Assembly (NCBI GenBank): GCA_043809315.1
Contig: JAZDDX010000042.1
Location: 1-30,904 of the forward strand
From: Pseudomonadota bacterium
GTDB lineage: Bacteria > Bdellovibrionota_G > JALEGL01 > DATDPG01
Length of the DNA: 30,904 nucleotides
Direction of reading: 5' to 3'
The position numbers were made by a program, and so were the translations under genes. A model generated the notes under the pieces. It was given only the letters and a program-made list of their open reading frames with translations, was not told the DNA's origin and made no database searches. Each line of letters starts with the position of its first letter. Position 1 is the first letter of the stretch. Below are positions 4,247 to 30,904 of this stretch, one piece after another.

Positions 4247-6273
4247 AGGAAGCCGATGAATGTCCCCGAACGCTGCCTGAAAACGCGTTCCGTCCCCTGA
4301 ACCCGGGGGAAACCTACGTCCCGATGGTCCGGGACGAAGAAACGGTCCGGGAGGTGAGCCTCCGCACCATCGTCACCGGCTTGGTGATGACGGTGATCTT
4401 CTCCGCGGCGGCCGGGTTCATCGCCCTCAAGACGGGGCAGGGGTTCGAGACCGCGATCCCGATCGTCATCATCTCGGTCGGCCTTTCGGCGCTCTTTCCG
4501 CGAAAGAGCACGCTTCTCGAGAACGTCAACATCATGGCAATCGGAGCGACCGCCTCCGGCGCGGTCGGTGGGACGATCTTCACCCTGCCTGCCCTCTGGA
4601 TTCTCGGCGTCGAGCAGTACACGAGCTTTCTCCAGATCTTCCTGATCTCACTCTTGGGAACCTGGCTCGGGATCCTCTTTTTGATTCCGTTCCGGCGATA
4701 TTTCGTCTCCGACATGCACGGGAAGCTCCCGTTTCCGGAAGGGACGGCGATCATCCGGACGCTCGTCGCCGGCGAGACCGGCGGGGCGCAAGCGCGGACG
4801 CTCGCCTACTGGGGGATCTTCGGGTTCATCTTCGACGGTTTGCTCTACATCCTGAAGGTGTGGCGGGAGGTGGTGACGACCTCTCTCGTCGGTTTTCTGG
4901 AGCCGGTCACGAAGAACACGAAATTGATCTTCAGCATGACCGCTTCGGGCGCGATGGCGGGGCTCGGGATGATCATCGGTCTCGAGTACGCGACGATCAT
5001 CCTGGGCGGGGCGATCCTCTCCTGGTGGATCTTTGTTCCCCTCTTTCCGTTGGTTGCCGATCTTCTTCGGTACCCGCTCGCTCTGGGCGGAATTACACTT
5101 CCGGCGGTCGATGTAATTCGCGACATGGACGCGCACGCCATCTTTCGCGGTTACATCCGGCACATCGGGATCGGCGGGATCTTCGCCGCCGGGTTGATCA
5201 GCATCTTCAAGCTCCGGAAGGTGATTTATGACGCCCTGACGAAGGGGATGCGGGGGCTCTTAAGCGCCAAACGCGGCGGAGAAACAAGTCGCCGGACCGA
5301 TCTCGACCTCGACATGGGAAAGGTGCTCCTGATGTTCGTCGGAGTCGCGGCGCTCGTCTTTCTCTATTATCGCTTCAGCGTCCTGCTCGATCAGCCGGGA
5401 GCGACCCGTCTGAGCATCGCCTCTCTGTTGATCGTTCTTGTCATGTCGTTCCTGTTCTCAGCGGTTTCGGCCTGGGCGATCGCGATGATCAGCGTGACGC
5501 CGGTGAGCGGGATGACCGCCACCTCCCTCATCATCACCGGTCTTGTTCTCGTAAAAATGGGGTTGACGGGAGAAGCGGGGATGTTGGCCGCCATCCTGAT
5601 CGGTGGCGTGATCTGCACCTCTCTGTCGATGTCGGGGACGCTCGTGACGGAGTTCAAGATCGCGCACTGGACCGGAGCGACGCCGAAAAAGGTTCAGGTT
5701 TGGAGTTTGATCGGTGCGGTTCTTGCGGCGCTGACCACGGGATGCGTGATCCTCCTCCTCGCCAAGACGCACGGGTACGCCGCGGACGCGACCCATCCGA
5801 ACCCGATGCCGGCGCCGCAGGCGAACGCCATGGCTGCCGTCGTGCGGAGCTTTTTCAGCGCGGGAAGCGCGCCGTGGTTTTTCTACGGCCTTGGGGCGCT
5901 GATTTCATTGATCGTCGCATTCACGGGGGTGAGCGCGCTTGCCTTCGCTCTCGGAATGTACCTTCCGCTGGAACTCAACACGCCGATCTTCCTCGGCGCC
6001 CTTGTGGTCTGGTTCCTCAAGAAATCGAGCCGGAGCGAAAAAGAGATGCACGCACGGGAAGAGAAGGGGAATCTCGTGGCGAGCGGCCTGATCGCCGGGG
6101 GAGGGCTGGCTGGGATCGCTTCGGCCTTCGTGATCATTGTTGTCGGGGAAGAGCGCGCCTCCTCGCTTCTTCCGGGGCTTCCGAACGAGGGACCGTTCGG
6201 GAATGTACTGGGCTTGGTGCTCTTCGCGGCGTTGCTTGCGTACATCTATCGAGCCTGCAAGAAGACCGATTAA
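4243..6273 (+). CDS. OPT-family oligopeptide transporter
   Basis: 676-aa polytopic membrane protein with LKTGQGFETAIP, LENVN, IFTLPAL, LPFPEGTA, PVSGMT, GATPKKVQ, PAPQANAM, ALGMYLP and ASGLIAG. ATGA overlap with the upstream peptidase stop. Confidence 0.92.
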   Translation: MKEADECPRTLPENAFRPLNPGETYVPMVRDEETVREVSLRTIVTGLVMTVIFSAAAGFIALKTGQGFETAIPIVIISVGLSALFPRKSTLLENVNIMAIGATASGAVGGTIFTLPALWILGVEQYTSFLQIFLISLLGTWLGILFLIPFRRYFVSDMHGKLPFPEGTAIIRTLVAGETGGAQARTLAYWGIFGFIFDGLLYILKVWREVVTTSLVGFLEPVTKNTKLIFSMTASGAMAGLGMIIGLEYATIILGGAILSWWIFVPLFPLVADLLRYPLALGGITLPAVDVIRDMDAHAIFRGYIRHIGIGGIFAAGLISIFKLRKVIYDALTKGMRGLLSAKRGGETSRRTDLDLDMGKVLLMFVGVAALVFLYYRFSVLLDQPGATRLSIASLLIVLVMSFLFSAVSAWAIAMISVTPVSGMTATSLIITGLVLVKMGLTGEAGMLAAILIGGVICTSLSMSGTLVTEFKIAHWTGATPKKVQVWSLIGAVLAALTTGCVILLLAKTHGYAADATHPNPMPAPQANAMAAVVRSFFSAGSAPWFFYGLGALISLIVAFTGVSALAFALGMYLPLELNTPIFLGALVVWFLKKSSRSEKEMHAREEKGNLVASGLIAGGGLAGIASAFVIIVVGEERASSLLPGLPNEGPFGNVLGLVLFAALLAYIYRACKKTD

Positions 6274-17410: not shown

Positions 17411-19228
17411 ATGGCACGAAGATCGTTCTTACTCCCCCTTCTTATTTCATTTCTCTCGTTCCCCGTGTGGGCTGTCGGAACAAGTCCGACTCCTGCAAGG
17501 GTGTCCGACGCCCAAGCGTTCGTAAAGTCGGCGGAGACGAGGTTGCTCGATCTCTGGACAAAATCGCAGCGCGCGGCTTGGGTGAAGTCGAACTTCATCA
17601 CCGACGATACCGAAGCGATCGAGGCGGAGGCGAACCGCCAGGTTCTGGCCGCGACGGTCGAATTGGCGTTGGCGGCCCGCCGATACGAGAAGATAAACCT
17701 TCCGGCCGATCTGAAGAGGAAGCTGTATCTCTTGCGGAACGGATCCTCGCTCGTCGCACCCCGAGACCCGGCGAAGCAGAAGGAGCTTGCGGAAATCGCG
17801 TCCTGGCTCGAAGGGACGTATGGAAAAGGTCGTTACTGTCCGCCGGGGAAGACGGGGGAAGACTGTCTCGACCTGACGAAGATCGAGGATGAATTCGGCA
17901 AAGTGCGGGATCCGGCACGCCTTACGGAGTTGTGGAACGGGTGGCACGCCGTCGGGACGCCGATGAAGGCGAAATACGCCCGTTTTGTCCAGCTGGCGAA
18001 TGAAGGGGCGCGGGAGCTCGGGTTCCGCGACTCCGGCGCGATGTGGCGGTCGAACTACGATATGACCCCGGCCGCGTTTTCCACCGAACTGGACCGTCTC
18101 TGGGATCAAGTGCGGCCGCTCTATGCCTCTCTCCATTGTTACGTTCGCGGGAAGCTGGCCGAGAAATACGGGAAAGAGATCGTCCGGGATGGGGCGCCGA
18201 TACCGACTCATCTCCTCGGGAATATGTGGGCCCAGGAATGGAGCAATATCTACGATCTCGTCCGGCCGGCGAAGGGAAACGTGGGGTATGACCTCACGAA
18301 GATCCTGAAGAGCCGGAAGCTCGGTGCCCAGGAGATGGTCCGGTACGGCGAGGGGTTCTTCACCTCCCTCGGGTTCGATCCGTTGCCTGCGACCTTCTGG
18401 GATCGGTCCCTGTTCCGGAAGCCGCGCGATCGCGAGGTCGTCTGCCACGCCAGCGCCTGGGACATCGATTCGAAAGACGATCTCCGGATCAAGATGTGCA
18501 TCGAGCCGGCCGACGGCGATTTCCGGACGGTTCACCACGAGCTGGGGCACAATTTCTACCAGCGGGCGTACAAGAACCTTTCCCCGTTGTTCGAGGACGG
18601 AGCGAACGACGGATTCCACGAGGGGATCGGCGATACGATCGCCCTCTCGATCACACCGGAGTATCTGGTGAAAGTCGGCCTTTTGAAGAAGGTGCCGCCG
18701 GCCGATGCCGACATCGGGGTTCTGCTCAAGACGGCGCTCGACAAGGTGGCGTTTCTCCCGTTCGGCCTCGTGATCGACAACTGGCGATGGAAGGTCTTCG
18801 CCGGGGAAGTCCGACCCGCCGAATACAACCGCGCGTGGTGGGAGTTGAAGCGGAAATATCAAGGGGTCGCGCCGCCGAAGGGACGGAGCGACGCCGATTT
18901 CGATCCGGGGGCGAAGTTCCATATCGCCGCGAATGTTCCGTACATGCGCTATTTCCTCGCCCACGTGATGCAGTTCCAGTTTCATCGCGCACTCTGCAAG
19001 GCGGTGGGGGGGACGGGGCCGCTGCACCGCTGTTCGATTTATGGGAACAAGGATGCGGGGAAGAAGTTGATCAAGATGCTCGAGATGGGGAGAAGCCATC
19101 CCTGGCCGGAAGCTCTCCAGGAATTGACCGGAGAGCGGGCGATGGATGCCACGGCGATCCTCGACTACTTCCAGCCGCTCCGGGAATGGCTGGACGAGCA
19201 GAACCGCGGGCAGAAATGCGGTTGGTGA
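17411..19228 (+). CDS. Secreted M2-family metallopeptidase (angiotensin-converting-enzyme-like peptidyl-dipeptidase A)
   Basis: Signal peptide, HLLGNMWAQEW, VCHASAWD, zinc motif HHELGH, GANDGFHEGIGD, FDPGAKFHI and PYMRYF. Confidence 0.95.
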   Translation: MARRSFLLPLLISFLSFPVWAVGTSPTPARVSDAQAFVKSAETRLLDLWTKSQRAAWVKSNFITDDTEAIEAEANRQVLAATVELALAARRYEKINLPADLKRKLYLLRNGSSLVAPRDPAKQKELAEIASWLEGTYGKGRYCPPGKTGEDCLDLTKIEDEFGKVRDPARLTELWNGWHAVGTPMKAKYARFVQLANEGARELGFRDSGAMWRSNYDMTPAAFSTELDRLWDQVRPLYASLHCYVRGKLAEKYGKEIVRDGAPIPTHLLGNMWAQEWSNIYDLVRPAKGNVGYDLTKILKSRKLGAQEMVRYGEGFFTSLGFDPLPATFWDRSLFRKPRDREVVCHASAWDIDSKDDLRIKMCIEPADGDFRTVHHELGHNFYQRAYKNLSPLFEDGANDGFHEGIGDTIALSITPEYLVKVGLLKKVPPADADIGVLLKTALDKVAFLPFGLVIDNWRWKVFAGEVRPAEYNRAWWELKRKYQGVAPPKGRSDADFDPGAKFHIAANVPYMRYFLAHVMQFQFHRALCKAVGGTGPLHRCSIYGNKDAGKKLIKMLEMGRSHPWPEALQELTGERAMDATAILDYFQPLREWLDEQNRGQKCGW

Positions 19229-20712: not shown

Positions 20713-23232
20713 ATGAGGTACGGTTGGTTCGTCGGAATCGTTCTCTCCCTGTCGACCGCGGGAGCCGCTCCCTGGACGGAAGCAAACGCCCCCTGGAACG
20801 TGAACCTGAATCCGGACGGGAGCGATCCGTCGAAGTATTACGGAGGGTGGCCGGGGCATCCTTATTACCCCTCTTCAGACGATTGGCGCCGGGAAGCGGT
20901 CTATCAGGTGATGACCGACCGCTTCCGGGACGGCGATCCGACCAACAACGACGGGAAGTACGGAGGGTACGACGTCACGAACTTCCAAAAACGGCAGGGG
21001 GGGGATTTCCGCGGTCTGGCGGAGAAGCTCGATTACATCAAATCGCTCGGCTTCACGGCGATCTGGATCACGCAGATCTTCCAGAATCTGGAGAACGAGT
21101 ACCACGGATACGGGCCCCTCGATTTCACGCTGATCGACGACCGTTTCGGAACCTTGGCCGACTTTCGCGCCCTGGTCGCTGCGGCGCATGCTCGCGGGAT
21201 GTACGTCTTCGTGGACGTGGTCGTGAACCACATGAGCTATCTTTATTACGCCGAGGGGTACGAGAAAAGCCGGGCTCCGTCCCGGATTCACGAGGGGGAG
21301 TATCGTCTCCTGCCCCGGAACCCGAAGGAGACGTACGCCGACTTCAATGTCGACAACACGTTTCAACCGGAAGGGCACTATCCGGATGTCTATGGGCGGG
21401 ACGGATTCGTCCGTCACGATGTCGGAAAGGGGAGCTATTGGGGAAGCGACTTTCATCACAACGGGGATCTGACCGATTACCGGGATCCCTGGAACAACGA
21501 ATTGGGTGCCATCTACGGCCGGTTCAACGACCTCCGGAACGACCACCCGCGAGTTCAGGCGAAGATCATCGCGATGACGAAGGCGTTGATCAGCTCCACC
21601 GACATCGACGGTCTGCGGGTCGATACGCCGATGCAAGTCGGATTGGGGTTCTTCAAAGCGTGGATTCCGGCGCTGAAGGAACATGCGGCCCGGCTCGGGA
21701 AGAAGGACTTCCTGATCTTCGGCGAGACCTACTGTGTGCGGTCGTGGACGGCCACGATGGTCGGTCGCGGGAAGACCCCGGCACACTATCGTAACGACAA
21801 GGAATTCATCGACGACATCCATGCCATGGACGGCGGGATCAACTACGTCTTTTACAAGGGGTTCATGGTTCCGGCTCTTTTCGACGGGAGACCGGGGGCA
21901 CTTTCATTCGGGTCAAGGGTCTTGGGGGACGACTTCTTGAGCTACGATCTCTGGGATCCGGTGCACAAGGAGACGCGGTACCGGATGCTCAACTTTTTCG
22001 GCAGCCACGACCAGCGGAGGCTTTCGACGATGGAGGACGGTCTCGCCAAAGCGATGCTCGCCTCCGGAATCGTCGCCTTCTGGCCGGGGATCCCGCTCTT
22101 CTTCCAAGGGGACGAGCAGGGGTTTTCCTCCTACGGGAACGGGTTGGACGGACATGCGCGCGAATCCCTCATGGCGTCCGTCGCCTGGGAGAATCAGCCG
22201 GCCGCGGTCAAGCCGAATCCGGCCGGTCCCGATAACTTCAACATGACCTCGCCTGCGTACCGGAAGATCCAGAGGTACATGAACGTTCGCCGACAGTATC
22301 CTGCGCTCTGGACCTCCGATCGGATCGTGCAACGCGCTCTCCAAGAGGGGGGTGGTCCGGGGTATCTTCTTTTTACGCGACGGAGTCCGGATGACCGGGA
22401 GACGCCCGTCCTCGTGGCGTTCAACACCTCGTCCAAGGTCGTGAAGGTGGTTGGGGCGGTTTCAACCGACTTTTCGAAAGAGGCCGTTTTGATCAATGTG
22501 CTGAAGCCGAAGGAACGATTCACGCTGGATCACGAAGGAAGGATTAACGGGCTGTCGATCGATCCGTACGAGATGAAACTCTTGGTTCCGGAGAATGCGC
22601 AAAAAGAACTCGCCCCGGTGGTTGAAGAGATGGTCCCCTACCACGAAGCGGTGGTGTCGGCCGGGTCGGCAAAGATCACCATTCGGTTCAGCTCGGAAAT
22701 GGACGAGGAATCGGTCCGTGGAGCGTTTCGCTACGACGGCAAGAAGCCGCCGGTGGCTGCGATTCATTACGATCGCGGGACTCGAACCGTTCAGTATCAC
22801 GCTCCGGTCACACCCGGAATCCATCATGTCACGATCCTGGAGAGTGCGATGTCCCGTTCCGGAAAGAACCTCCTCGGAACGTTCGAATCCCGATTCCGCA
22901 ACGGCGCCAAACAGAATGTCCTTGTGAACCGCACCGCCCGTTATGACACCACGTTGATCGAACGGGGAAAACGTCCCCTCCGGGATCCGCGCGTGCGCCT
23001 TTTTCATAAAGCGGTGGGGGCCGAGTATTTCCGGGTTTCGTGGAACAACGGAGGGAGCTGGACCCCTTGGAAGCCGTATCAAGCGGTGAGCGAGTGGAAG
23101 CTCCCCGAATTCAACGGCTGGAAGGAGTTGACCGTGCAATATTGGGCCGATGGGAGCGGCGCTTATCAGGTCCGTGCGGGGATCGATCTCTTCATCCCGG
23201 ACGGTGTGGAAGCGGACGAACCGATCCCCTGA
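20713..23232 (+). CDS. Secreted GH13 (alpha-amylase family) protein resembling the extracellular domain of fungal alpha-1,3-glucan synthase (GH13_22-like)
   Basis: Signal peptide. GH13 regions YQVMTDRFRDGD, GGDFRGL..KLDYIKSLG, DVVVNH, GLRVD (nucleophile), FGE (acid/base), SHD and PGIPLFFQGDEQ. C-terminal Ig-like region. Confidence 0.82.
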   Translation: MRYGWFVGIVLSLSTAGAAPWTEANAPWNVNLNPDGSDPSKYYGGWPGHPYYPSSDDWRREAVYQVMTDRFRDGDPTNNDGKYGGYDVTNFQKRQGGDFRGLAEKLDYIKSLGFTAIWITQIFQNLENEYHGYGPLDFTLIDDRFGTLADFRALVAAAHARGMYVFVDVVVNHMSYLYYAEGYEKSRAPSRIHEGEYRLLPRNPKETYADFNVDNTFQPEGHYPDVYGRDGFVRHDVGKGSYWGSDFHHNGDLTDYRDPWNNELGAIYGRFNDLRNDHPRVQAKIIAMTKALISSTDIDGLRVDTPMQVGLGFFKAWIPALKEHAARLGKKDFLIFGETYCVRSWTATMVGRGKTPAHYRNDKEFIDDIHAMDGGINYVFYKGFMVPALFDGRPGALSFGSRVLGDDFLSYDLWDPVHKETRYRMLNFFGSHDQRRLSTMEDGLAKAMLASGIVAFWPGIPLFFQGDEQGFSSYGNGLDGHARESLMASVAWENQPAAVKPNPAGPDNFNMTSPAYRKIQRYMNVRRQYPALWTSDRIVQRALQEGGGPGYLLFTRRSPDDRETPVLVAFNTSSKVVKVVGAVSTDFSKEAVLINVLKPKERFTLDHEGRINGLSIDPYEMKLLVPENAQKELAPVVEEMVPYHEAVVSAGSAKITIRFSSEMDEESVRGAFRYDGKKPPVAAIHYDRGTRTVQYHAPVTPGIHHVTILESAMSRSGKNLLGTFESRFRNGAKQNVLVNRTARYDTTLIERGKRPLRDPRVRLFHKAVGAEYFRVSWNNGGSWTPWKPYQAVSEWKLPEFNGWKELTVQYWADGSGAYQVRAGIDLFIPDGVEADEPIP

Positions 23233-23294
23233 TCGGCAATTCCGCGTTGACAAAGGGAACGCCAACGAGCAGCATTTGAAGCCTTCGCACATCT

Positions 23295-24242
23295 ATGCGG
23301 GTCATCGACCACCTAACCAAGTCCGGAACGGGTCCGGTATTCAGCTTTGAGATCATCCCCCCCTCTCGTGGGAGCGATGCGGGGGAGATCCTCCGGATCG
23401 TAGAGGAGTTGGTTCCCTTACAACCGGCGTTCATCGACGTCACCAGCCATCCGGCTGAGGCGACGTACGAAGAAGACACTGCGGGGGCGCTCCACCGGAA
23501 GGTTCGGCGTAAACGCCCGGGAACGCTCGGAATCTGCGGCGTCATCCAGAACCGGTTCTCGATCGATACGGTCGCTCACATTCTCTGCCGGGGATTCACG
23601 AAGGAGGAGACCGAAGACGCGCTGATCGAACTCCATTACCTCGGGATCCACAACGTCATGGCGCTTCGCGGGGACGAGCCGAACTACAAAAAGGAGGTCG
23701 CCAAGGACCGGTCGGTCAACGTCCATTCGGTCGACCTGGTTCGTCAGATCCGGGGCTTAGGGAAGGGGGAGTATCTCGACGAGATCCTAAACCCTCAGCC
23801 GCTCGATTTTTGTATTGGTGTGGCCGGGTATCCGGAGAAACATTTCGAGTCTCCGAACCTCAAAACCGACATCGGCCATCTCAAGGAGAAAGCGGAAAAC
23901 GGAGCCGGGTATGTCGTCACGCAGATGTTCTTCGACAACCGGATTTTCCATTCCTACGTCCGAGCGGTCCGGGAAGCGGGGATTTTGCTGCCGATCGTCC
24001 CGGCGCTCAAGATTCTGCACAACTCGAAGCAGCTCTCCGCGGTGCCGAAGAAATTTCATGTCGACCTCCCGGAGGCGCTGTCGGATGAAATGGCGAAGCA
24101 TCCCGATCGTGCGGATGAGATCGGGGAGGAGTGGACCGTCGCCCAGTGCCGGGACCTCCTGAAGAACGGATGGCGGCACCTCCATTTCTTCATCCTCGAC
24201 GATGCTACCTCTGTCATTCGGGTGGTCCGGAAGCTACAATAA
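23295..24242 (+). CDS. metF: 5,10-methylenetetrahydrofolate reductase
   Basis: Motifs [43 protein letters not shown] and LHFF. Directly upstream of metH. Confidence 0.92.
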
Positions 24243-24254
24243 CTTCCGAACATC

Positions 24255-27200
24255 ATGATGATCGCCGAACTCCTACAAAGGAGGGTTCTCGTTCTCGACG
24301 GCGCGATGGGAACGATGATCCAGAGCCGCGGCCTGAAAGGGAACAACGATCACTTCTCTCTCACCCATCCGGACGTGATCGAACAGATCCACGTCTCCTA
24401 TCTCGAGGCGGGGGCCGATCTCATCGAGACGAACACATTCAACGCGAACCGGATTTCGCAGGCCGATTACGGTCTTTCGCATCTCGCGCAAGAAATGAAC
24501 CGATCGTCTGCACGCTTGGCCCGTCGCGCGGCCGATCGGTACTCGACGGACCGGAAACCGCGCTTCGTGGCCGGATCAGTCGGACCGACGAACAAGACGG
24601 CGTCGATTTCTCCGAACGTGGATGATCCCTCGTATCGCTCCGTCACCTTCGACGAACTGGTCGTTGCATACGAGGAGCAGATCCGAGGGTTGATCGAGGG
24701 GGGTGCGGACCTCCTCCTGATCGAGACGATCTTCGACACGCTGAACGCGAAGGCGGCCCTTTTCGGCGCGGAAGAAGCGTTCGAGCGGACGAAACGGCGC
24801 CTTCCGCTCATGATCTCCGCCACGCTCTCCGATCAGAGCTACCGGACGCTCTCAGGTCAGACGCTTCGGGCGTTCCTGGTTTCGATTGCGCACGCCGACC
24901 TTCTTTCGGTGGGACTCAACTGTTCCTTCGGGGCGAGAGAGATGCTTCCGGCCCTCCGGGAACTCTCTGCCGCGTCCGATCTCTACGTCACGGCATACCC
25001 GAACGCGGGGCTCCCGAACCGGTTTGGGGCATACGACGAGAGCCCCGATTCAATGGCCGAATGCGCGAAGGAGTTTCTGGACCAAAAGCTCGTGAACGTG
25101 ATCGGCGGCTGCTGCGGAACGACTCCCGATCACATCCGGAAATTGGCACGTCTGGCTTCCACGGCGGAGCCGAGAGTCCCCCCGATCCTCGAGCGGCAAA
25201 CCCAGCTTTCGGGCCTGGAGCCCCTCACCGTCACGAGAGAGATCAACTTCGTGAACATCGGTGAGCGGACGAACGTGATGGGCTCACGGAAGTTCGCTTC
25301 CTTGATCCGGGAGGAGAAATACGACGAGGCGCTTTCTGTGGCGCGTGAACAGGTCGACGGCGGGGCGCAGATGATCGACGTCTGCATGGACGAGTCGATG
25401 ATCGACGCCGAAAGCGCGATGCGCACCTTCCTGAACTGCGTCGCCTCCGACCCGTCCGTCTCCCGGGTGCCGATCGTGATCGACTCGTCGAAATGGCCGG
25501 TGATCGAAGCGGGACTCAAGTGTGTGCAAGGGAAAGGGGTCGTCAACTCGATCAGTCTCAAAGAAGGGGAGGAGACGTTCAAACTCCGTGCTCGGATGAT
25601 CCGGAGGTTCGGGGCCGCCGCGATCGTCATGGCGTTCGACGAGCGGGGGCAGGCCGATACGTTTGAACGCAAAATCGAGGTCTGCGGTCGCGCTTATCGG
25701 ATCCTGACGGAGGAGGCCGGGTTTCCGGCGGAGGACGTGATCCTCGATCCGAATGTTCTGGCGATCGGAACCGGGATCGAAGCGCACAACGGGTTCGCGG
25801 TCGACTACATCCGGGCGGTCCGCTGGATCAAGGAGCATCTCCCCGGGGCCAAGGTGAGCGGCGGAGTGAGCAACCTCTCGTTCGCGTTCCGCGGGAACGA
25901 GGTCATCCGTCGGGCGATCCACACGGTTTTTTTAAAACACGCGATCGAGGCGGGGATGGACATGGGGATCGTCAACCCCTCGCAGCTCGATATCTACGAC
26001 GACATCTCGAAGGAGTTGCGCGAAGCCGCGGAAGATCTCGTTCTCAACCGGCGTCCCGATGCGACCGACCGAATGACGGCGCTCGCCACCGAAACGGACG
26101 GGAAACCGAAGGCGGAGCGCGCGACGGCCCAGTGGCGGGGAGCATCCGTAGAGGAACGGCTGCGGCATGCGCTGATCGAGGGGATCGACTCCCATATTGA
26201 GGAAGATGTGGAAGAGGCGAGGAAGGCCCGTTCCAAAGCGCTTCAGGTGATCGAAGGTCCGCTCATGGCCGGGATGAACGCGGTCGGGGAGCTCTTCGCC
26301 GCGGGAAAGATGTTTCTCCCTCAGGTAATCAAGAGCGCCCGTGTGATGAAGAAGGCGGTCGCCGCGCTCACGCCGCACCTCGAGAGAGAAAAGACGGCGG
26401 GGAGTTCGTTCGCCGGTAGGGTCCTCCTGGCGACGGTCAAGGGGGATGTTCACGACATCGGGAAGAATATCGTGGCGGTCGTCTTGGGGTGCAACAACTA
26501 CGAAGTGATCGATCTCGGAGTCATGGTCCCCGCCGAAAGAATCCTGAAAGAAGCGGAAGAAAGGAAGGTCGATCTGATCGGGTTGAGCGGCCTCATTACT
26601 CCTTCGCTCGAGGAGATGGCGGCGGTGGCGACGGAGATGGAGCGGAGGGGTCTCAAGGTGCCGCTTCTGATCGGTGGCGCCACGACGTCGGAGGCGCACA
26701 CGGCGGTCAAGATCGCGCCGAACTTCAGCCAGCCGGTCATCCACGTCAAAGATGCCTCCAAGAGCGTATCTGTAACGGCGAACCTCCTGTCACCGGAGCG
26801 GCGAGAATCGTTTCTGCGAGAGACGAACGAGAGATACGAGCAGATCCGAAAGAGTCACGCGTCAGGTTTGTCGGCTTACGAGTATGTCCCGCTCGAAGTC
26901 GCCCGCAAGAACCGTTGGTCGACTGACTGGTCAAGCGCGAAGATCGTTTCTCCTCGGCGCCCCGGAATCACCGAGTTCAAGAACCATCCGCTCGAACAAC
27001 TCGTTTCGCACATCGACTGGACCTTCTTCTTCCACTCCTGGAGGCTCAACGGGAAGTACCCGACGATTCTGGATGATCCGGTGAAGGGGGAGGAGGCACG
27101 GAAGCTTCTTGCCGATGCACGTGCGATGATCGACAGGATTGTTACCGAAAAAGGGGTGACGGCGAACGGTGTGGTCGGGATCTTTCCGGCGAACTCCGTG

Positions 27201-27776
27201 GGAGACGACATCGAGGTTTACGCGAACGATCGGGCGGATTCGGTTCTGGAACGGTTCTATTTCTACCGCGATCAACGGAAGAAGGGACCGGGGGAGGCGA
27301 ATCTCTGCGTTGCCGATTTTGTGGCCCCGAAGGAATCGGGTCGAACCGATTTCATCGGTGGGTTTACGGCGACGGCCGGGATCGGGATCGAACGGTGGAT
27401 TCAGCAGTTCGAGGAAAAGCAGGACGATTACGGCGTGATCATGAGCAAGATCCTGGCCGATCGTTTCGCCGAGGCGTTTGCGGAGTGGTTGCACGCGAAG
27501 GTTCGGGACGAGCTCTGGGGGTTCGGATCTGAAGGGTGGGAGGGGTTGCGCCCGGCGTATGGCTACCCGTCGATGCCGGATCATACCGAGAAGCGACAAC
27601 TCTTCGATCTGATCGAAGCGGAGCGGCGGACGTCGATGTCGCTCACGGAGACCTACGCGATGTTCCCCGCGGCGTCGGTTTGCGGTTTGTATCTCGCCCG
27701 GCCCGAAGCGAAGTACTTCGATCTAGAGAAAATCCAACGCGATCAGGTCGACGATTACGCCCGGCGAACCGCCTAA
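24255..27776 (+). CDS. metH: Cobalamin-dependent methionine synthase
   Basis: Motifs [22 protein letters not shown] (Zn), [22 protein letters not shown]12 motif GDVHDIGKN, and reactivation-domain RPAYGYP and PAASVCG. Confidence 0.97.
27666..27767 (+). repeat. Direct repeat copy 1: last codons of metH
   Basis: 102 nt matching 29225-29326 with 9 mismatches. 27672-27724 is identical to 29231-29283 (53 nt). Confidence 0.95.
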
Positions 27777-27858
27777 CGCAAAGCAGTAATTGTGCAGGTT
27801 TTCGCCTGTCCTTTGGAGTTTAATAGGTCTAACTAGTTTTAATCATTAGATTTAGGTC

Positions 27859-27874
27859 AGGCACGGTGATTGCG
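27859..27874 (+). promoter_or_regulatory. Putative sigma54 (-24/-12) promoter of lipoprotein 1
   Basis: AGGCACGGTGATTGCG gives GG-N10-GC, a close match to TGGCACG-N4-TTGC. An AT-rich tract precedes it, and 13 nt separate the GC from the ATG. Confidence 0.7.
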
Positions 27875-27886
27875 TAATCAATCGGC

Positions 27887-29218
27887 ATGAAACGATTTCT
27901 CACCGCTTTGACGATGATCTCTCTCGTTCTCCTTTCGGCCTGCGGGCGCGACGAGAAGGGGGCCAGGATCGGCCCGGGGAATAACATCATCGATCCGACG
28001 GCGACCCCGACTCCGACGGGTACCCCCGGCCCCGTGGCCCGCCTGGAAACAGCCCAGATCGTGGATTTCGGCGAGGGGTTCGTCGGCCAGGTCTCCGAGC
28101 GGACCCTCACGATCCAGAACGCGGGCGCCGCGGCAGCCACGGAACTGAATTCCAGTTCGCCGGCCACGCCCTTCGCCTTCAAAGGCGGGGTCTTCCCCGG
28201 CACCGGCGGAACCTGCCCCAAGAACGGGAAGTTGGATCCCGGCACCCAGTGCACATTAGTCGTTTCCCTGGCTCCCAACGCGGAGGGAAGCTTCTCGGCC
28301 GACCTCAGCATTTCGTACAACGACGGAGAAGAGGACCAGGTCATGACGGCCCAACTCAAAGCTTCAGGATCCTTCTGTGACCCCGGCGCCAGTCCTTTCG
28401 GGTACGGTTCGGGTACAGCCGAAAACGATCCCTTTCTGATCTGCTCGCCTGCACATCTGCGGAACCTGGCCCAAGCCTCGAACATGAACGCGTACTTGAA
28501 GCTGACGAAAGACCTGGACCTCGCGGGCGAAACGATCAACCCCATCGGGAACGAAGTCATTCCCTTCGGCGGCATCTTCGACGGAAACAAGAAGATCCTT
28601 TCGAACCTCACGATCTCCAAGTCGGGTCAGAGCAACGTCGGCCTCTTCGGCGTCGTGGCCAACAGCTTCCTCTATGCGGAGATCAAGGACTTGGGCCTTA
28701 CGAACATCAACGTCTCCGGGTACGACAATGTGGGCGGGTTGGTCGGAAGGATGAAGAGCGGAGCCATCCACCGTTCATTCACCACGGGACGAGTCACGTC
28801 GGCTCACGATCGGGCGGGCGGGCTGGTAGGCTGGGCCGGAGAGACGGGCAACGCCGTCATCCAGGATTCTTACGCCCAAGCCGTTGTTTCCGCCGCGAAC
28901 ATCGCCGCGGGCGGGGTCGTGGGCGAGTCCGCCGGCGGCTGCGCCATCAACCGAACGTACGCCGCGGGCCAGGTGGGGGCCCTCAACGGCAACGTGGGCG
29001 GCCTCGTGGGGAAAGCATCCTACTGGTCAGATTGTTACTCCTCATTTTGGGATGAGAAACTCGGCAACGTGTACAGCAACGCCTGTGGGGGAGGACAGGG
29101 GATCCCTACATACAAGTTCGTAATGCAGAGTACGTTCTCCGGTTGGGATTTCGACCAAACGTCGACGCCCATCTGGAAGCTGACCGATACTTACCCGGCC
29201 ATGAAATGGGAGCCTTAG
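27887..29218 (+). CDS. Lipoprotein with Pro/Thr linker, Ig-like (choice-of-anchor D / ASH-like) domain and GLUG-motif domain
   Basis: Lipobox LSAC (Cys19) and PTATPTPT linker. Ig-like VDFG...TLTIQNAG...FKGGVFPGTGGTC...C.LVV. Then GSGT..DPFLI and repeated NVGLFG/NVGGLVG/AGGLVG motifs. Confidence 0.82.
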   Translation: MKRFLTALTMISLVLLSACGRDEKGARIGPGNNIIDPTATPTPTGTPGPVARLETAQIVDFGEGFVGQVSERTLTIQNAGAAAATELNSSSPATPFAFKGGVFPGTGGTCPKNGKLDPGTQCTLVVSLAPNAEGSFSADLSISYNDGEEDQVMTAQLKASGSFCDPGASPFGYGSGTAENDPFLICSPAHLRNLAQASNMNAYLKLTKDLDLAGETINPIGNEVIPFGGIFDGNKKILSNLTISKSGQSNVGLFGVVANSFLYAEIKDLGLTNINVSGYDNVGGLVGRMKSGAIHRSFTTGRVTSAHDRAGGLVGWAGETGNAVIQDSYAQAVVSAANIAAGGVVGESAGGCAINRTYAAGQVGALNGNVGGLVGKASYWSDCYSSFWDEKLGNVYSNACGGGQGIPTYKFVMQSTFSGWDFDQTSTPIWKLTDTYPAMKWEP

Positions 29219-29224
29219 GCCGCT

Positions 29225-29326
29225 CCGGCAGCGTCGGTTTGCGGTTTGTATCTCGCCCGGCCCGAAGCGAAGTACTTCGATCTCGAGAAGATCCAGCGGG
29301 ATCAGGCCGACGACTACGCCCGGCGG
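29225..29326 (+). pseudogene. metH: Orphan duplicate of the metH 3' end (direct repeat copy 2)
   Basis: Translates as [34 protein letters not shown](K), versus ...QVDDYARR(TA*) in metH. It has no start codon of its own and begins 6 nt after the lipoprotein 1 stop. Confidence 0.9.
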
Positions 29327-29445
29327 AAAAAGCTCTCGTAATCCGGTATCTCGGACCAGTCTAACGCAGAGCAGCACTTGAGCAGAGTTTCGCCTATTTT
29401 GGGAATGGTGTCAGTGTAAGTATTTGTTTTTATGTGGTTATGATT

Positions 29446-29461
29446 AGGCATGCCGTTTGCT
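29446..29461 (+). promoter_or_regulatory. Putative sigma54 (-24/-12) promoter of lipoprotein 2
   Basis: AGGCATGCCGTTTGCT gives GG-N10-GC. AT-rich tract upstream and the same 13-nt spacing to the ATG as in copy 1. Confidence 0.7.
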
Positions 29462-29473
29462 TAACCAGGAGAC

Positions 29474-30904
29474 ATGAAACGAATTCTGGTGTGTCTGGCG
29501 GCGGTTTCCCTCCTTGCTCTTTCAGCATGCGGGCGTGACGACAAGGGGGCAAAGATAGGCCCGGGGAATAACCTTTCTGGTGCCACGGCTACACCCACGG
29601 CAACTGAGACTGCGACTGCAACGCCGACGCCATCGGGCGTTCTCATTAGTCCCAACGCGCTGACCCAGATACCGTTCACCGGAAGAATTCAAGTTTCGAT
29701 CTCCGGTCCGTCCGGGTTTCAGGTTCGGTACGAGGAGAGAGGGTTCAACCAATTCACGCCCGATCCGACCTGCGCGACGGGAACGGTTTATTCGGGCCCC
29801 TTCCTGGTGGGCGGTCCGAGCGAAACCGTTCATGTCAAAGCGGTTGCTTGCGATGGGGGTCGGGTTTCCTCCGTTGCGACCGGGACGTACACGTTCGGCG
29901 CGCCCAGTTCCGTTCTCCTGAGCCCCAGTTCGGCCAATCAGAATTCCTTTACACAGAAAGTTACCGTGTCGATCTCCGGCCCCGCCGGCATGCAGATCCG
30001 GTATGAAGAGAAAGGATACAACGAAGTCACGCCCGATCCGACCTGCGCGACGGGGACGGTCTATTCGGGGCCGTTCCTGGTGGGCGGCCCGAGTGAAACG
30101 GTTCACGTGAAGGCGATCGCATGCGAAAACGACCGCGCATCCCCGATCACAACCGGTACGTACACCTTCGGTTCGCCGGGTTCCCCGACACTCAATCCGC
30201 CGAACGGGAATCGAAACCCCTACACGGGAAAGATATCGGTTTCGATGTCGGCGACCGCCGGTTTCCAGATCCGATACGAGGATATCGGGTACAACGAGAT
30301 CCCGCCCGATCCGACCTGCGCGACGGGGACGGTCTATTCGGGTCCGTTCTTGGTCGGCGGTCCGAGCGAAACCGTCCGCGTCAAAGCGATTGCTTGTGTG
30401 AGCGACCGGGCCTCTCCCGTTGCGACCGGGACGTACACGTTCGGCGCGCCCAGTCCCGTTCTCCTGAGCCCCAGTTCAGCCAATCAGAATCCCTTTACAC
30501 AGAAAGTGACCGTTTCGATGTCGGCAACGTCTGGTTTCCAGATCCGGTACGAGGAGAGAGGGTACAACGAAGTCACACCCGACCCGACCTGCTCGACGGG
30601 GACGGTCTATTCGGGCCCCTTCCTGGTCGGCGGTCCGAACGAAACCGTCCATGTCAAGGCGATCGCGTGCGAAAGTGGCCGGGCGTCCCCGGTCACGACC
30701 GGCACCTATATCTTCGGGTTACCGGGTTCGCCGACCCTCAACCCGCTGAACGAGAATCGGAATCCTTACACGGGTAAGATATCGGTTTCGATGTCGGCGA
30801 CCGCCGGTTTCCAGATCCGATACGAGGATATCGGGTACAACGAGATCCCGCCCGATCCGACCTGCGCGACGGGGACGGTCTATTCGGGTCCGTTCTTGGT
30901 CGGC
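29474..30904 (+). CDS. Lipoprotein with tandem 91-aa Fn3-associated / chitobiase-C-terminal-like repeats (partial, runs off the window; not in the ORF track)
   Basis: Translated by hand: MKRILVCLAAVSLLALSAC-GRDDKGAKIGPGNN, an Ala/Thr/Pro linker, then repeats of ..SP......FT.K..VS.S...G.QIRYE..GYNE..PDPTCATGTVYSGPFLVGGPSETV.VKAIAC...RASPV.TGTYTFG. No stop codon before the window end. Confidence 0.88.
   Translation, partial: MKRILVCLAAVSLLALSACGRDDKGAKIGPGNNLSGATATPTATETATATPTPSGVLISPNALTQIPFTGRIQVSISGPSGFQVRYEERGFNQFTPDPTCATGTVYSGPFLVGGPSETVHVKAVACDGGRVSSVATGTYTFGAPSSVLLSPSSANQNSFTQKVTVSISGPAGMQIRYEEKGYNEVTPDPTCATGTVYSGPFLVGGPSETVHVKAIACENDRASPITTGTYTFGSPGSPTLNPPNGNRNPYTGKISVSMSATAGFQIRYEDIGYNEIPPDPTCATGTVYSGPFLVGGPSETVRVKAIACVSDRASPVATGTYTFGAPSPVLLSPSSANQNPFTQKVTVSMSATSGFQIRYEERGYNEVTPDPTCSTGTVYSGPFLVGGPNETVHVKAIACESGRASPVTTGTYIFGLPGSPTLNPLNENRNPYTGKISVSMSATAGFQIRYEDIGYNEIPPDPTCATGTVYSGPFLVG
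29639..30904 (+). repeat. Intragenic tandem repeat, 273-bp unit, at least 4.6 copies
   Basis: Units start at 29639, 29912, 30185, 30458 and 30731. The DPTC-coding anchor recurs at 29761, 30034, 30307, 30580 and 30853, exactly 273 bp apart. Confidence 0.95.

Follow-up and report, generated by a model that had tools for sequence, protein, structure and literature searches.

Tandem lipoprotein units behind two metH 3' ends: probable capture of an allelic cassette in an uncultured bacterium

The window analysed here, a stretch of 30,904 nt, is the entire contig C42 of genome G000 (GCA_043809315.1), a Pseudomonadota bacterium that GTDB places in Bdellovibrionota_G. The assembly has 2.42 Mb in 44 contigs (completeness 96%, contamination 0.65%). 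Near the end of the window, the 3' end of metH, the gene for cobalamin-dependent methionine synthase, occurs twice, and each of these tails heads a unit with its own sigma-54-type promoter and lipoprotein gene. Our reading, to which we give a probability of about 60%, is that host recombination placed a metH-tail, promoter and lipoprotein cassette from a relative ahead of the resident unit (additive capture). The two tails differ almost only at silent positions, a second strain is mosaic for them, and the same scar is found at unrelated genes of the genome. If so, this would be one route by which a subsurface bacterium that is not in culture may gain variant surface proteins, each under a sigma-54 promoter of its own; the value of the case is limited by its one genome, two units and no empty site.

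Anatomy and alleles of the metH tails

The metH tail at 27666-27767, comprising the 34 sense codons that precede the final two, recurs at 29225-29326 with a spacing of 1559 nt. The copies are identical at 93 of 102 nt in a codon comparison and at 92% in the repeat search (27666-27766 against 29225-29325). Both are followed, in the same order, by a 35-nt block, an AT-rich spacer, a GG-N10-GC promoter core and a leader with its lipobox at Cys19 (Table 1), and the whole heads of the two units align at E 3e-43. Copy 1 ends metH in RRTA*, with the stop codon inside the block; copy 2, the orphan, ends in RRKKLS* and stands 29 bases farther from its block than copy 1 does.

A sequence-only reading of this DNA had already described two such units 1559 nt apart, with different passengers, a 53-nt identical core, a second unit starting 6 nt after the stop of lipoprotein 1, and no integrase or transposase in the window. 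Repeat search, codon comparison and coordinates bear this out. The passengers are an Ig-like domain with a GLUG region in lipoprotein 1 and 91-aa repeats in lipoprotein 2; the core lies at 27672-27724 and 29231-29283; lipoprotein 1 ends at 29218 and tail copy 2 begins at 29225; and no integrase, resolvase or transposase family was found among the open reading frames (ORFs) of the window that were scanned, nor any PF00589 or PF00239 match on C42. The same reading had spoken of a cassette array and expected further units in the genome or the downstream contig. This part did not stand: the locus is a pair of units, not an array, as no third copy of tail, block, leader or head is found in the 44-contig assembly and no further unit in the continuation of the locus on contig C20. 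With two copies in 44 contigs, the tail repeat is not a dispersed multicopy element.

The TAG stop of lipoprotein 1 and the orphan tail share a reading frame. Readthrough, which would add ~40 residues, was considered and set aside: TAG ends 543 of the 2194 called genes and a frame match has a chance of 1 in 3, so the in-frame arrangement is probably due to chance.

Table 1. Features of the metH locus in the window and of similar loci elsewhere in the genome
Feature	Position	Strand	Basis or remark
metF	23295-24242	+	MTHFR domain; upstream neighbour of metH
metH, cobalamin-dependent methionine synthase, 1173 aa	24255..27776	+	All five MetH Pfam domains; C-terminal end ...DYARRTA*
Tail copy 1, functional last codons of metH (34 codons)	27666..27767	+	Repeat search, codon comparison
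53-nt core, identical in both copies	27672..27724 (= 29231-29283)	+	Run of 17 identical codons
Conserved block 1, overlaps metH stop	27773..27807	+	29/35 nt identical to block 2
AT-rich spacer 1	27808..27858	+	Sequence
Sigma-54-type -24/-12 promoter 1	27859..27874	+	GG-N10-GC at 27860-27873
Lipoprotein 1, 443 aa: lipobox, PT linker, Ig-like domain (PF22544/PF15780), GLUG region	27887..29218	+	Leader and domain search
Tail copy 2 (orphan): 34 metH codons, then KKLS*	29225..29341	+	Codon comparison; in frame with TAG stop of lipoprotein 1
Conserved block 2	29361..29395	+	29/35 nt identical to block 1
Sigma-54-type -24/-12 promoter 2, after AT-rich spacer 2	29446..29461	+	GG-N10-GC at 29447-29460; among strict-consensus sites
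Lipoprotein 2: same leader, TA/PT linker, 91-aa repeats (273-nt period)	29474..30904, past window end	+	Repeat search
Carbamate-kinase-like gene, tail copy 831 nt downstream	C20:96860-98638 (L102)	-	Last ~105 nt recur (101 nt, 91%)
DUF2062 gene, decayed 54-nt tail copy (81%, internal stop)	C17:53217-55564 (L123)	-	Copy 20 nt past stop of 566-aa Na/H-exchanger + TrkA-N (K+/H+ antiporter-like) gene
23S/5S region	C1:48928-59459 (L103)	-	5S piece at contig end; ~100 nt of 23S 3' end and full 5S; two 5S 3' fragments; lipoprotein and secreted-protein genes between

The two tails differ in 9 of 34 codons, eight times synonymously and once nonsynonymously. Neutral decay would be expected to give a synonymous share of 0.24-0.30, under which a ratio of 8:1 is improbable (P=8e-5 to 4e-4). 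This shows that the orphan served as a working metH end during most of its divergence, so that the tails are two alleles and not a gene end with its decayed duplicate. Synonymous divergence is similar in the tail (0.26-0.32) and in the 18-codon leader core (0.32-0.38; five synonymous and two nonsynonymous differences), which fits alleles of two lineages. Compared with evenly spread differences, the run of 17 identical codons is nonrandom in simulation (P=0.0046), and the 53-nt core that it forms is probably a crossover or conversion tract.

The same codons speak against a tandem duplication within one genome, after which the passenger would have been exchanged at the PT linker and the tails patched later through conversion or imported DNA, since an untranslated copy should gain mostly amino-acid-changing differences. 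At a comparable locus on C20, described below, inserted and resident genes are alike only in their first codons, so duplication fails there. In its favour, the genome has several tandem lipoprotein paralogue groups with common N-termini, the second strain described below shows that tails can be homogenised, and the seven bases directly 3' of the lipoprotein 2 stop match metH at the start of the tail copy, a microhomology that was noticed post hoc and predicts a junction different from the real one. We consider a duplication of this kind unlikely.

Codon usage also suggests which unit is the newcomer. The orphan tail carries the commoner codon at seven of the eight synonymous sites of metH, and its KKLS end is nearer than RRTA to the RKGMS-like end of most relatives; for these reasons it is probably the displaced resident end of metH. 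It appears rather likely that unit 1 is the incomer, and that KKLS* and lipoprotein 2 represent the resident. Two observations speak against a foreign unit 1: lipoprotein 1 has the commoner codon at five of five synonymous sites of the leader core, and its GC content at third codon positions (GC3) is 0.78, host-like as that of metH (0.77), compared with 0.71 in lipoprotein 2.

A mosaic strain and similar scars

A second strain is represented in the sequencing run X1, which contains 16% of the sampled words and from which the evidence comes as assembled contigs. Compared with the window, four X1 contigs within metH have 11 differences in 1381 nt. X1 record 7 (416 nt, 27438-27853, no gaps, depth 4.2) shows eight differences, seven of which are exactly all the tail-2 alleles 3' of the core (27725-27767) and one a new silent change; after the tail-2 alleles, it retains the two upstream codons, the stop and the block of unit 1. 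This mosaic junction is absent from G000, and therefore it is not a misjoin of G000-like sequence. Being a mosaic of both tails, the record shows that the tails have exchanged sequence in the population, by conversion or by a different crossover; it cannot tell which tail form is older. A further short X1 contig maps to tail 2 and has a single variant, at 29329. No excision joint is among the X1 records listed, which are contigs only, cover 18 of 30 bins and have no cover on lipoprotein 1.

These records bear on the concern that the pair is an assembly artefact, made by joining two strains, or the chromosome and a small circle, through the 53-nt core. The assembly is fragmented, and no contig of X1 or of the run X2 spans the 29218/29225 junction. 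However, X1 independently has the end of unit 1 and pieces of unit 2, the junction between the lipoprotein 1 stop and the tail copy is unique sequence that a misjoin in the core could not create, and an overlap of exactly 141 nt, common to many contig ends, suggests that the assembly used words longer than the core. Together with a contamination of 0.65%, these points make an artefact very improbable.

The scar is not peculiar to metH. The last 150 nt of each of 1852 called genes longer than 400 nt (from our own gene caller) were sought up to 12 kb downstream, outside called same-strand genes. Five genes have a downstream copy of their tail. In three cases, those of metH, the carbamate-kinase-like gene (C20) and the DUF2062 gene (C17), another gene lies between the two copies. 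Two matches were set aside, one on C15, whose copy is the C-terminal end of an ORF missed by the gene caller, and one on C29 with a 36-nt copy and no gene between. Control scans with middle segments gave orphan matches for 5 genes and those with 5' segments for 11; most are PT repeats or paralogue leaders, and none has the metH-type anatomy by inspection.

On C20, the tail copy begins at the stop of an inserted 245-aa secreted protein without a Pfam match, and the start codon of the next gene is in both copies. Over 33 codons, its tails have seven synonymous versus two nonsynonymous differences (P=0.0008-0.002), and the orphan copy has the commoner codon at all seven synonymous sites. The sequence-only reading had proposed that the 3' end of metH acts as a recombination anchor. 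Recombination at this end is supported by the synonymous alleles, the identical core between diverged flanks (P=0.005 when rounded) and the X1 mosaic, but a role special to metH is not, as the same scar is found at unrelated genes.

The 23S/5S region on C1 is an ambiguous case. One of its junctions is a patchwork of 176-nt (97%) and 39-nt (95%) pieces of genes further downstream, such as template switching would leave. In genome G001 (L117:7337-7668), the last 83 nt of 5S are repeated with 97.6% identity, 249 nt apart, and in G003 (L118) a 5S fragment with the same start point lies ~2 kb from a large serine recombinase gene. It is because of this last fragment that the C1 case is ambiguous; 5S rRNA may be an integrase target in this family.

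A few other repeats of the genome were noted beside these. On the minus strand of C15 (943-2163, L106), two successive genes agree in their final ~38 codons and in how these overlap the following start codon (81% over 111-115 nt), which may reflect the same kind of insertion with the tail joined in frame; in the vicinity, a tRNA-like 3' fragment is followed by three GLUG lipoprotein genes. At C29:101303-101506, the last 36 nt of a 154-aa gene are repeated exactly, 133 nt past its stop, with no gene between. A 113-nt repeat pair on C23 (4606-7505, L105) consists of 5157-5269, the 3' end of a 218-aa gene, and the intergenic 5888-6000, whose differences, by eye, fall mainly on adenines. The locus also has an Avd-like gene (PF22296, below the cut-off) and, on the opposite strand, the sole reverse transcriptase match of the genome; it is an apparent diversity-generating retroelement. 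On C43 (4164-16467, L104), an intergenic motif of 37-51 nt occurs five times and a related one twice, without an Rfam match. The left end of C43 overlaps that of C16, near the genome's only serine recombinase match, and these motifs may be attachment-site scars.

Proposed mechanism and relation to known systems

We propose that DNA of a related lineage, carrying its own metH 3' end, sigma-54 promoter and lipoprotein gene, would have entered the cell, presumably by natural transformation, and paired with the resident metH tail, so that host homologous recombination could insert it with no loss of the resident unit. The donor may have been a 1559-bp circle, taken up through a single crossover, or a linear molecule of which one end was anchored and the other joined through microhomology; the crossover would lie within the 53-nt core. 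The outcome would be a whole metH and two lipoprotein genes with their promoters, i.e. two alleles of one locus in tandem. The event would be reversible in principle, as recombination between the tails would excise unit 1 and leave metH intact. RecA, ComEC and DprA are encoded in G000. With almost all of their differences at silent sites, the repeats point to an allele brought by the donor and to ordinary recombination by the host.

Several observations weigh against additive capture. No empty site, third allele or circle junction was found, and no close relative is among the data searched. Along metH, the GC3 profile shows no long donor tract. ComEC is present in 10 and DprA in 11 of 14 control genomes, and their presence is no proof of competence. 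The X1 evidence is one contig, at depth 4.2 and from one study, and conversion between old copies gives the same mosaic. The C20 pair is without a long identical core. All three orphan tails begin 0-20 nt after a stop codon, compared with 1.05% of random positions, which the model leaves unexplained; selection for whole genes may account for part of this proximity.

The searches covered distant relatives. No same-genus relative of G000 is among the genomes available for comparison, the best metagenomic MetH C-termini are 51-60% identical to that of G000, and X1 coverage of the locus is patchy. A second match to the metH tail was found at none of 88 other metH loci with a tail match, all of distant relatives and 56 of them with at least 2 kb downstream. 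In G003, G004, G008 and G013, no tail repeat follows metH, and the neighbours differ.

It is conceivable that the metH site is a live exchange point which needs no recombinase: ~1.5-kb circles of tail, promoter and lipoprotein gene, closed at the lipoprotein stop codon, would leave and re-enter by RecA-dependent single crossover and spread by DNA uptake between related lineages, stacking or swapping surface proteins, with the same route serving the carbamate-kinase and 5S ends. We regard this extension as doubtful.

Could the unit instead be what is left of a site-specific integrative element that brought a new metH 3' end in its attachment site, its integrase and remaining genes having been deleted or acting in trans? 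Replacement of a protein gene's 3' end is reportedly seen with e14 in E. coli icd and with islands in guaA. With such elements, an incoming 3' end that differs synonymously makes the target whole again and displaces the old one, and a site-specific integrase is carried or depended on. The metH locus resembles them in the restoring 3' end and differs in the integrase, as no linked integrase gene is found at metH or at the C20 site. Elsewhere in G000 there are ten tyrosine-recombinase (PF00589) matches and one serine-recombinase (PF00239) match, none on C42 or C20, as well as tRNA-end duplicates. At 14 of 15 synonymous sites it is the functional tail that has the rarer codon, as could be the case for ends borne by an element; the G003 5S fragment lies near a recombinase gene; and deletion of an element body up to the stop codon would account for the position of the junction. 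On the other side, block, promoter and leader of the cargo are homologous to those of the resident locus, which places the cargo's origin at the same chromosomal position of a relative. Only 6 nt, and no element sequence, lie between the lipoprotein 1 stop and the tail, and the scar occurs at three unrelated protein genes, each of which would need its own lost integrase. The degenerate pattern of the metH core has no match among viral contigs, and a phage collection gave three weak matches at 71% identity, namely two unannotated fragments and one chromosomal metH. An origin from such an element is thus improbable.

In its sequence features, the metH locus fits insertion with long target duplication in the broad sense only. 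According to PMC2853133, direct repeats of 24-423 bp with 86-100% identity flank a small insert without mobility genes, and the duplications often span start or stop sites so that the target gene survives, mostly in competent species. In one case from C. jejuni, the downstream repeat is identical to the empty site (208/208) and the one upstream differs (195/208); Furuta, Abe and Kobayashi (2010) favour breaks by the cargo's own nuclease (PMC2853133). The mechanism is recognised for restriction-modification (RM) systems 'and other DNAs' (Lim et al. 2012, PMC3457768). At metH, a direct repeat of more than 30 bp flanks an insert under 20 kb (1559-nt period, one lipoprotein gene, no mobility gene), the target gene is kept, and the polarity is, as we infer it, that of C. 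jejuni. The metH locus differs in that its cargo is a lipoprotein gene and not an RM system, which takes it out of the narrow definition by RM cargo of the 2010 screen; since the cargo is a surface lipoprotein, a cargo-nuclease break cannot apply. It differs also in that the cargo is an allele of the resident downstream gene, with repeats that differ almost only synonymously.

The sequence-only reading knew of no described example at metH. Our literature searches likewise showed no report of insertion at metH among the papers listed, but the pattern itself has a published name (PMC2853133). Recombinase-free gene insertion between long direct repeats is still poorly explained, and the metH case, having no nuclease cargo, adds to the known kind silent divergence, an allelic cargo and a mosaic strain. 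A further paper on insertion with long target duplication is reportedly that of Nobusato et al. (2000).

Two other systems work alike but belong to different families. In Vibrio cholerae, effector-immunity modules of its type VI secretion system (T6SS) are displaced sequentially, for which homology-facilitated illegitimate recombination is proposed (PMC5361080; the mechanism also in PMC2884548). As in these and in orphan Rhs/CDI (contact-dependent inhibition) modules, a conserved upstream anchor is followed by a relative's allelic module that enters and pushes the resident one downstream, without an integrase. T6SS loci lose the old effector and keep an orphan immunity gene (PMC5361080), whereas at metH an unrelated housekeeping gene serves as the anchor, and a whole gene with its promoter stays in the displaced unit. 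The likeness to Rhs/CDI orphan modules in the sequence-only reading does not extend to content, as there is no toxin or immunity domain, both lipoproteins are whole, and the anchor is metH and not a piece of the same gene. In the Staphylococcus aureus lpl cluster, tandem lipoprotein genes are shuffled by homologous recombination, the unit being one gene's 3' end, the intergenic stretch and the next gene's 5' end (PMC2568036). There the recombination site is inside every paralogue of a long array; here the 3' part is metH and there are two units.

Promoters, lipoproteins and neighbouring genes

GG-N10-GC is the core of sigma-54 promoters. A strict sigma-54 consensus has 23 sites in the genome, that of unit 2 included; the unit 1 site misses it by the last base. 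Many of the 23 precede secreted or PT-linker proteins, as judged by eye. G000 encodes rpoN, 13 full-length activator domains and five HU/IHF-family genes, so that the core, rpoN and enhancer-binding proteins of a sigma-54-dependent promoter are all present at the sequence level. The block stands ~95 nt ahead of the likely start, where activators bind, and by this position it is probably regulatory, an activator-binding site of the promoter. Spacer 1 has what we take to be a possible IHF-type bending site. Allowing up to 11 mismatches in 36 nt, the block has no other match in the genome.

Other readings of the block were tried. Its first seven bases prompted an attC/integron idea, which was rejected: block and spacer form no strong hairpin (z-scores -0.8 to +2.0, both strands), and none of 13 matches to the integron integrase TIGR02249 is above the cut-off (best 80 bits versus 265) in this 96% complete genome. 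A structured RNA has no Rfam match at E<=1 within 23000-30904. Among the listed runs with locus sequence there is no RNA run. As a remnant of the missing C-terminal helix of MetH, the block is similar by eye in one frame, but in unit 1 this frame contains a stop and the differences are mostly amino-acid-changing, and the reading was rejected on inspection. This final helix, which most of 80 metagenomic MetH relatives have, is absent from both possible MetH ends, RRTA and KKLS.

Both leaders have an 18-codon common core (87% nt identity) and a PT/TA linker. Lipoprotein 2 runs past the window: the end of C42 overlaps the reverse strand of C20 by 44 nt, and the gene stops ~400 nt into C20, where a convergent gene for a TPR membrane protein follows. 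Its length is ~596 aa if the overlap is a direct join, with an uncertain number of repeats. The 91-aa repeats are most like CHB_HEX_C_1/Fn3-associated domains (Pfam E 5e-4, under the cut-off; Atlas features 0.92; structure TM 0.6-0.7), and the likely outcome for the cell is a second extracellular binding protein under the same sigma-54 control. The leader has no exact degenerate match in the collection of genome contigs; of 15 genomes of the order, one, G000 itself, gives a leader-only match. A search for other leader alleles covered 15 candidates with lengths of 243-776 aa, of which none passed but the protein itself. All four of the proteins that were looked up form singleton clusters. Tandem lipoprotein paralogue groups with common N-termini are found on C15, C16, C24, C28 and C29.

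MetH of G000 is 50% identical to MetH of G008 and G013, which belong to another family, and 36-39% to full-length MetH of its own family; by this comparison, metH itself may have been acquired. Farther upstream in the window, a gene at 17411-19228 encodes a bacterial peptidase M2 of the angiotensin-converting-enzyme family (PF01401, E 9e-223).

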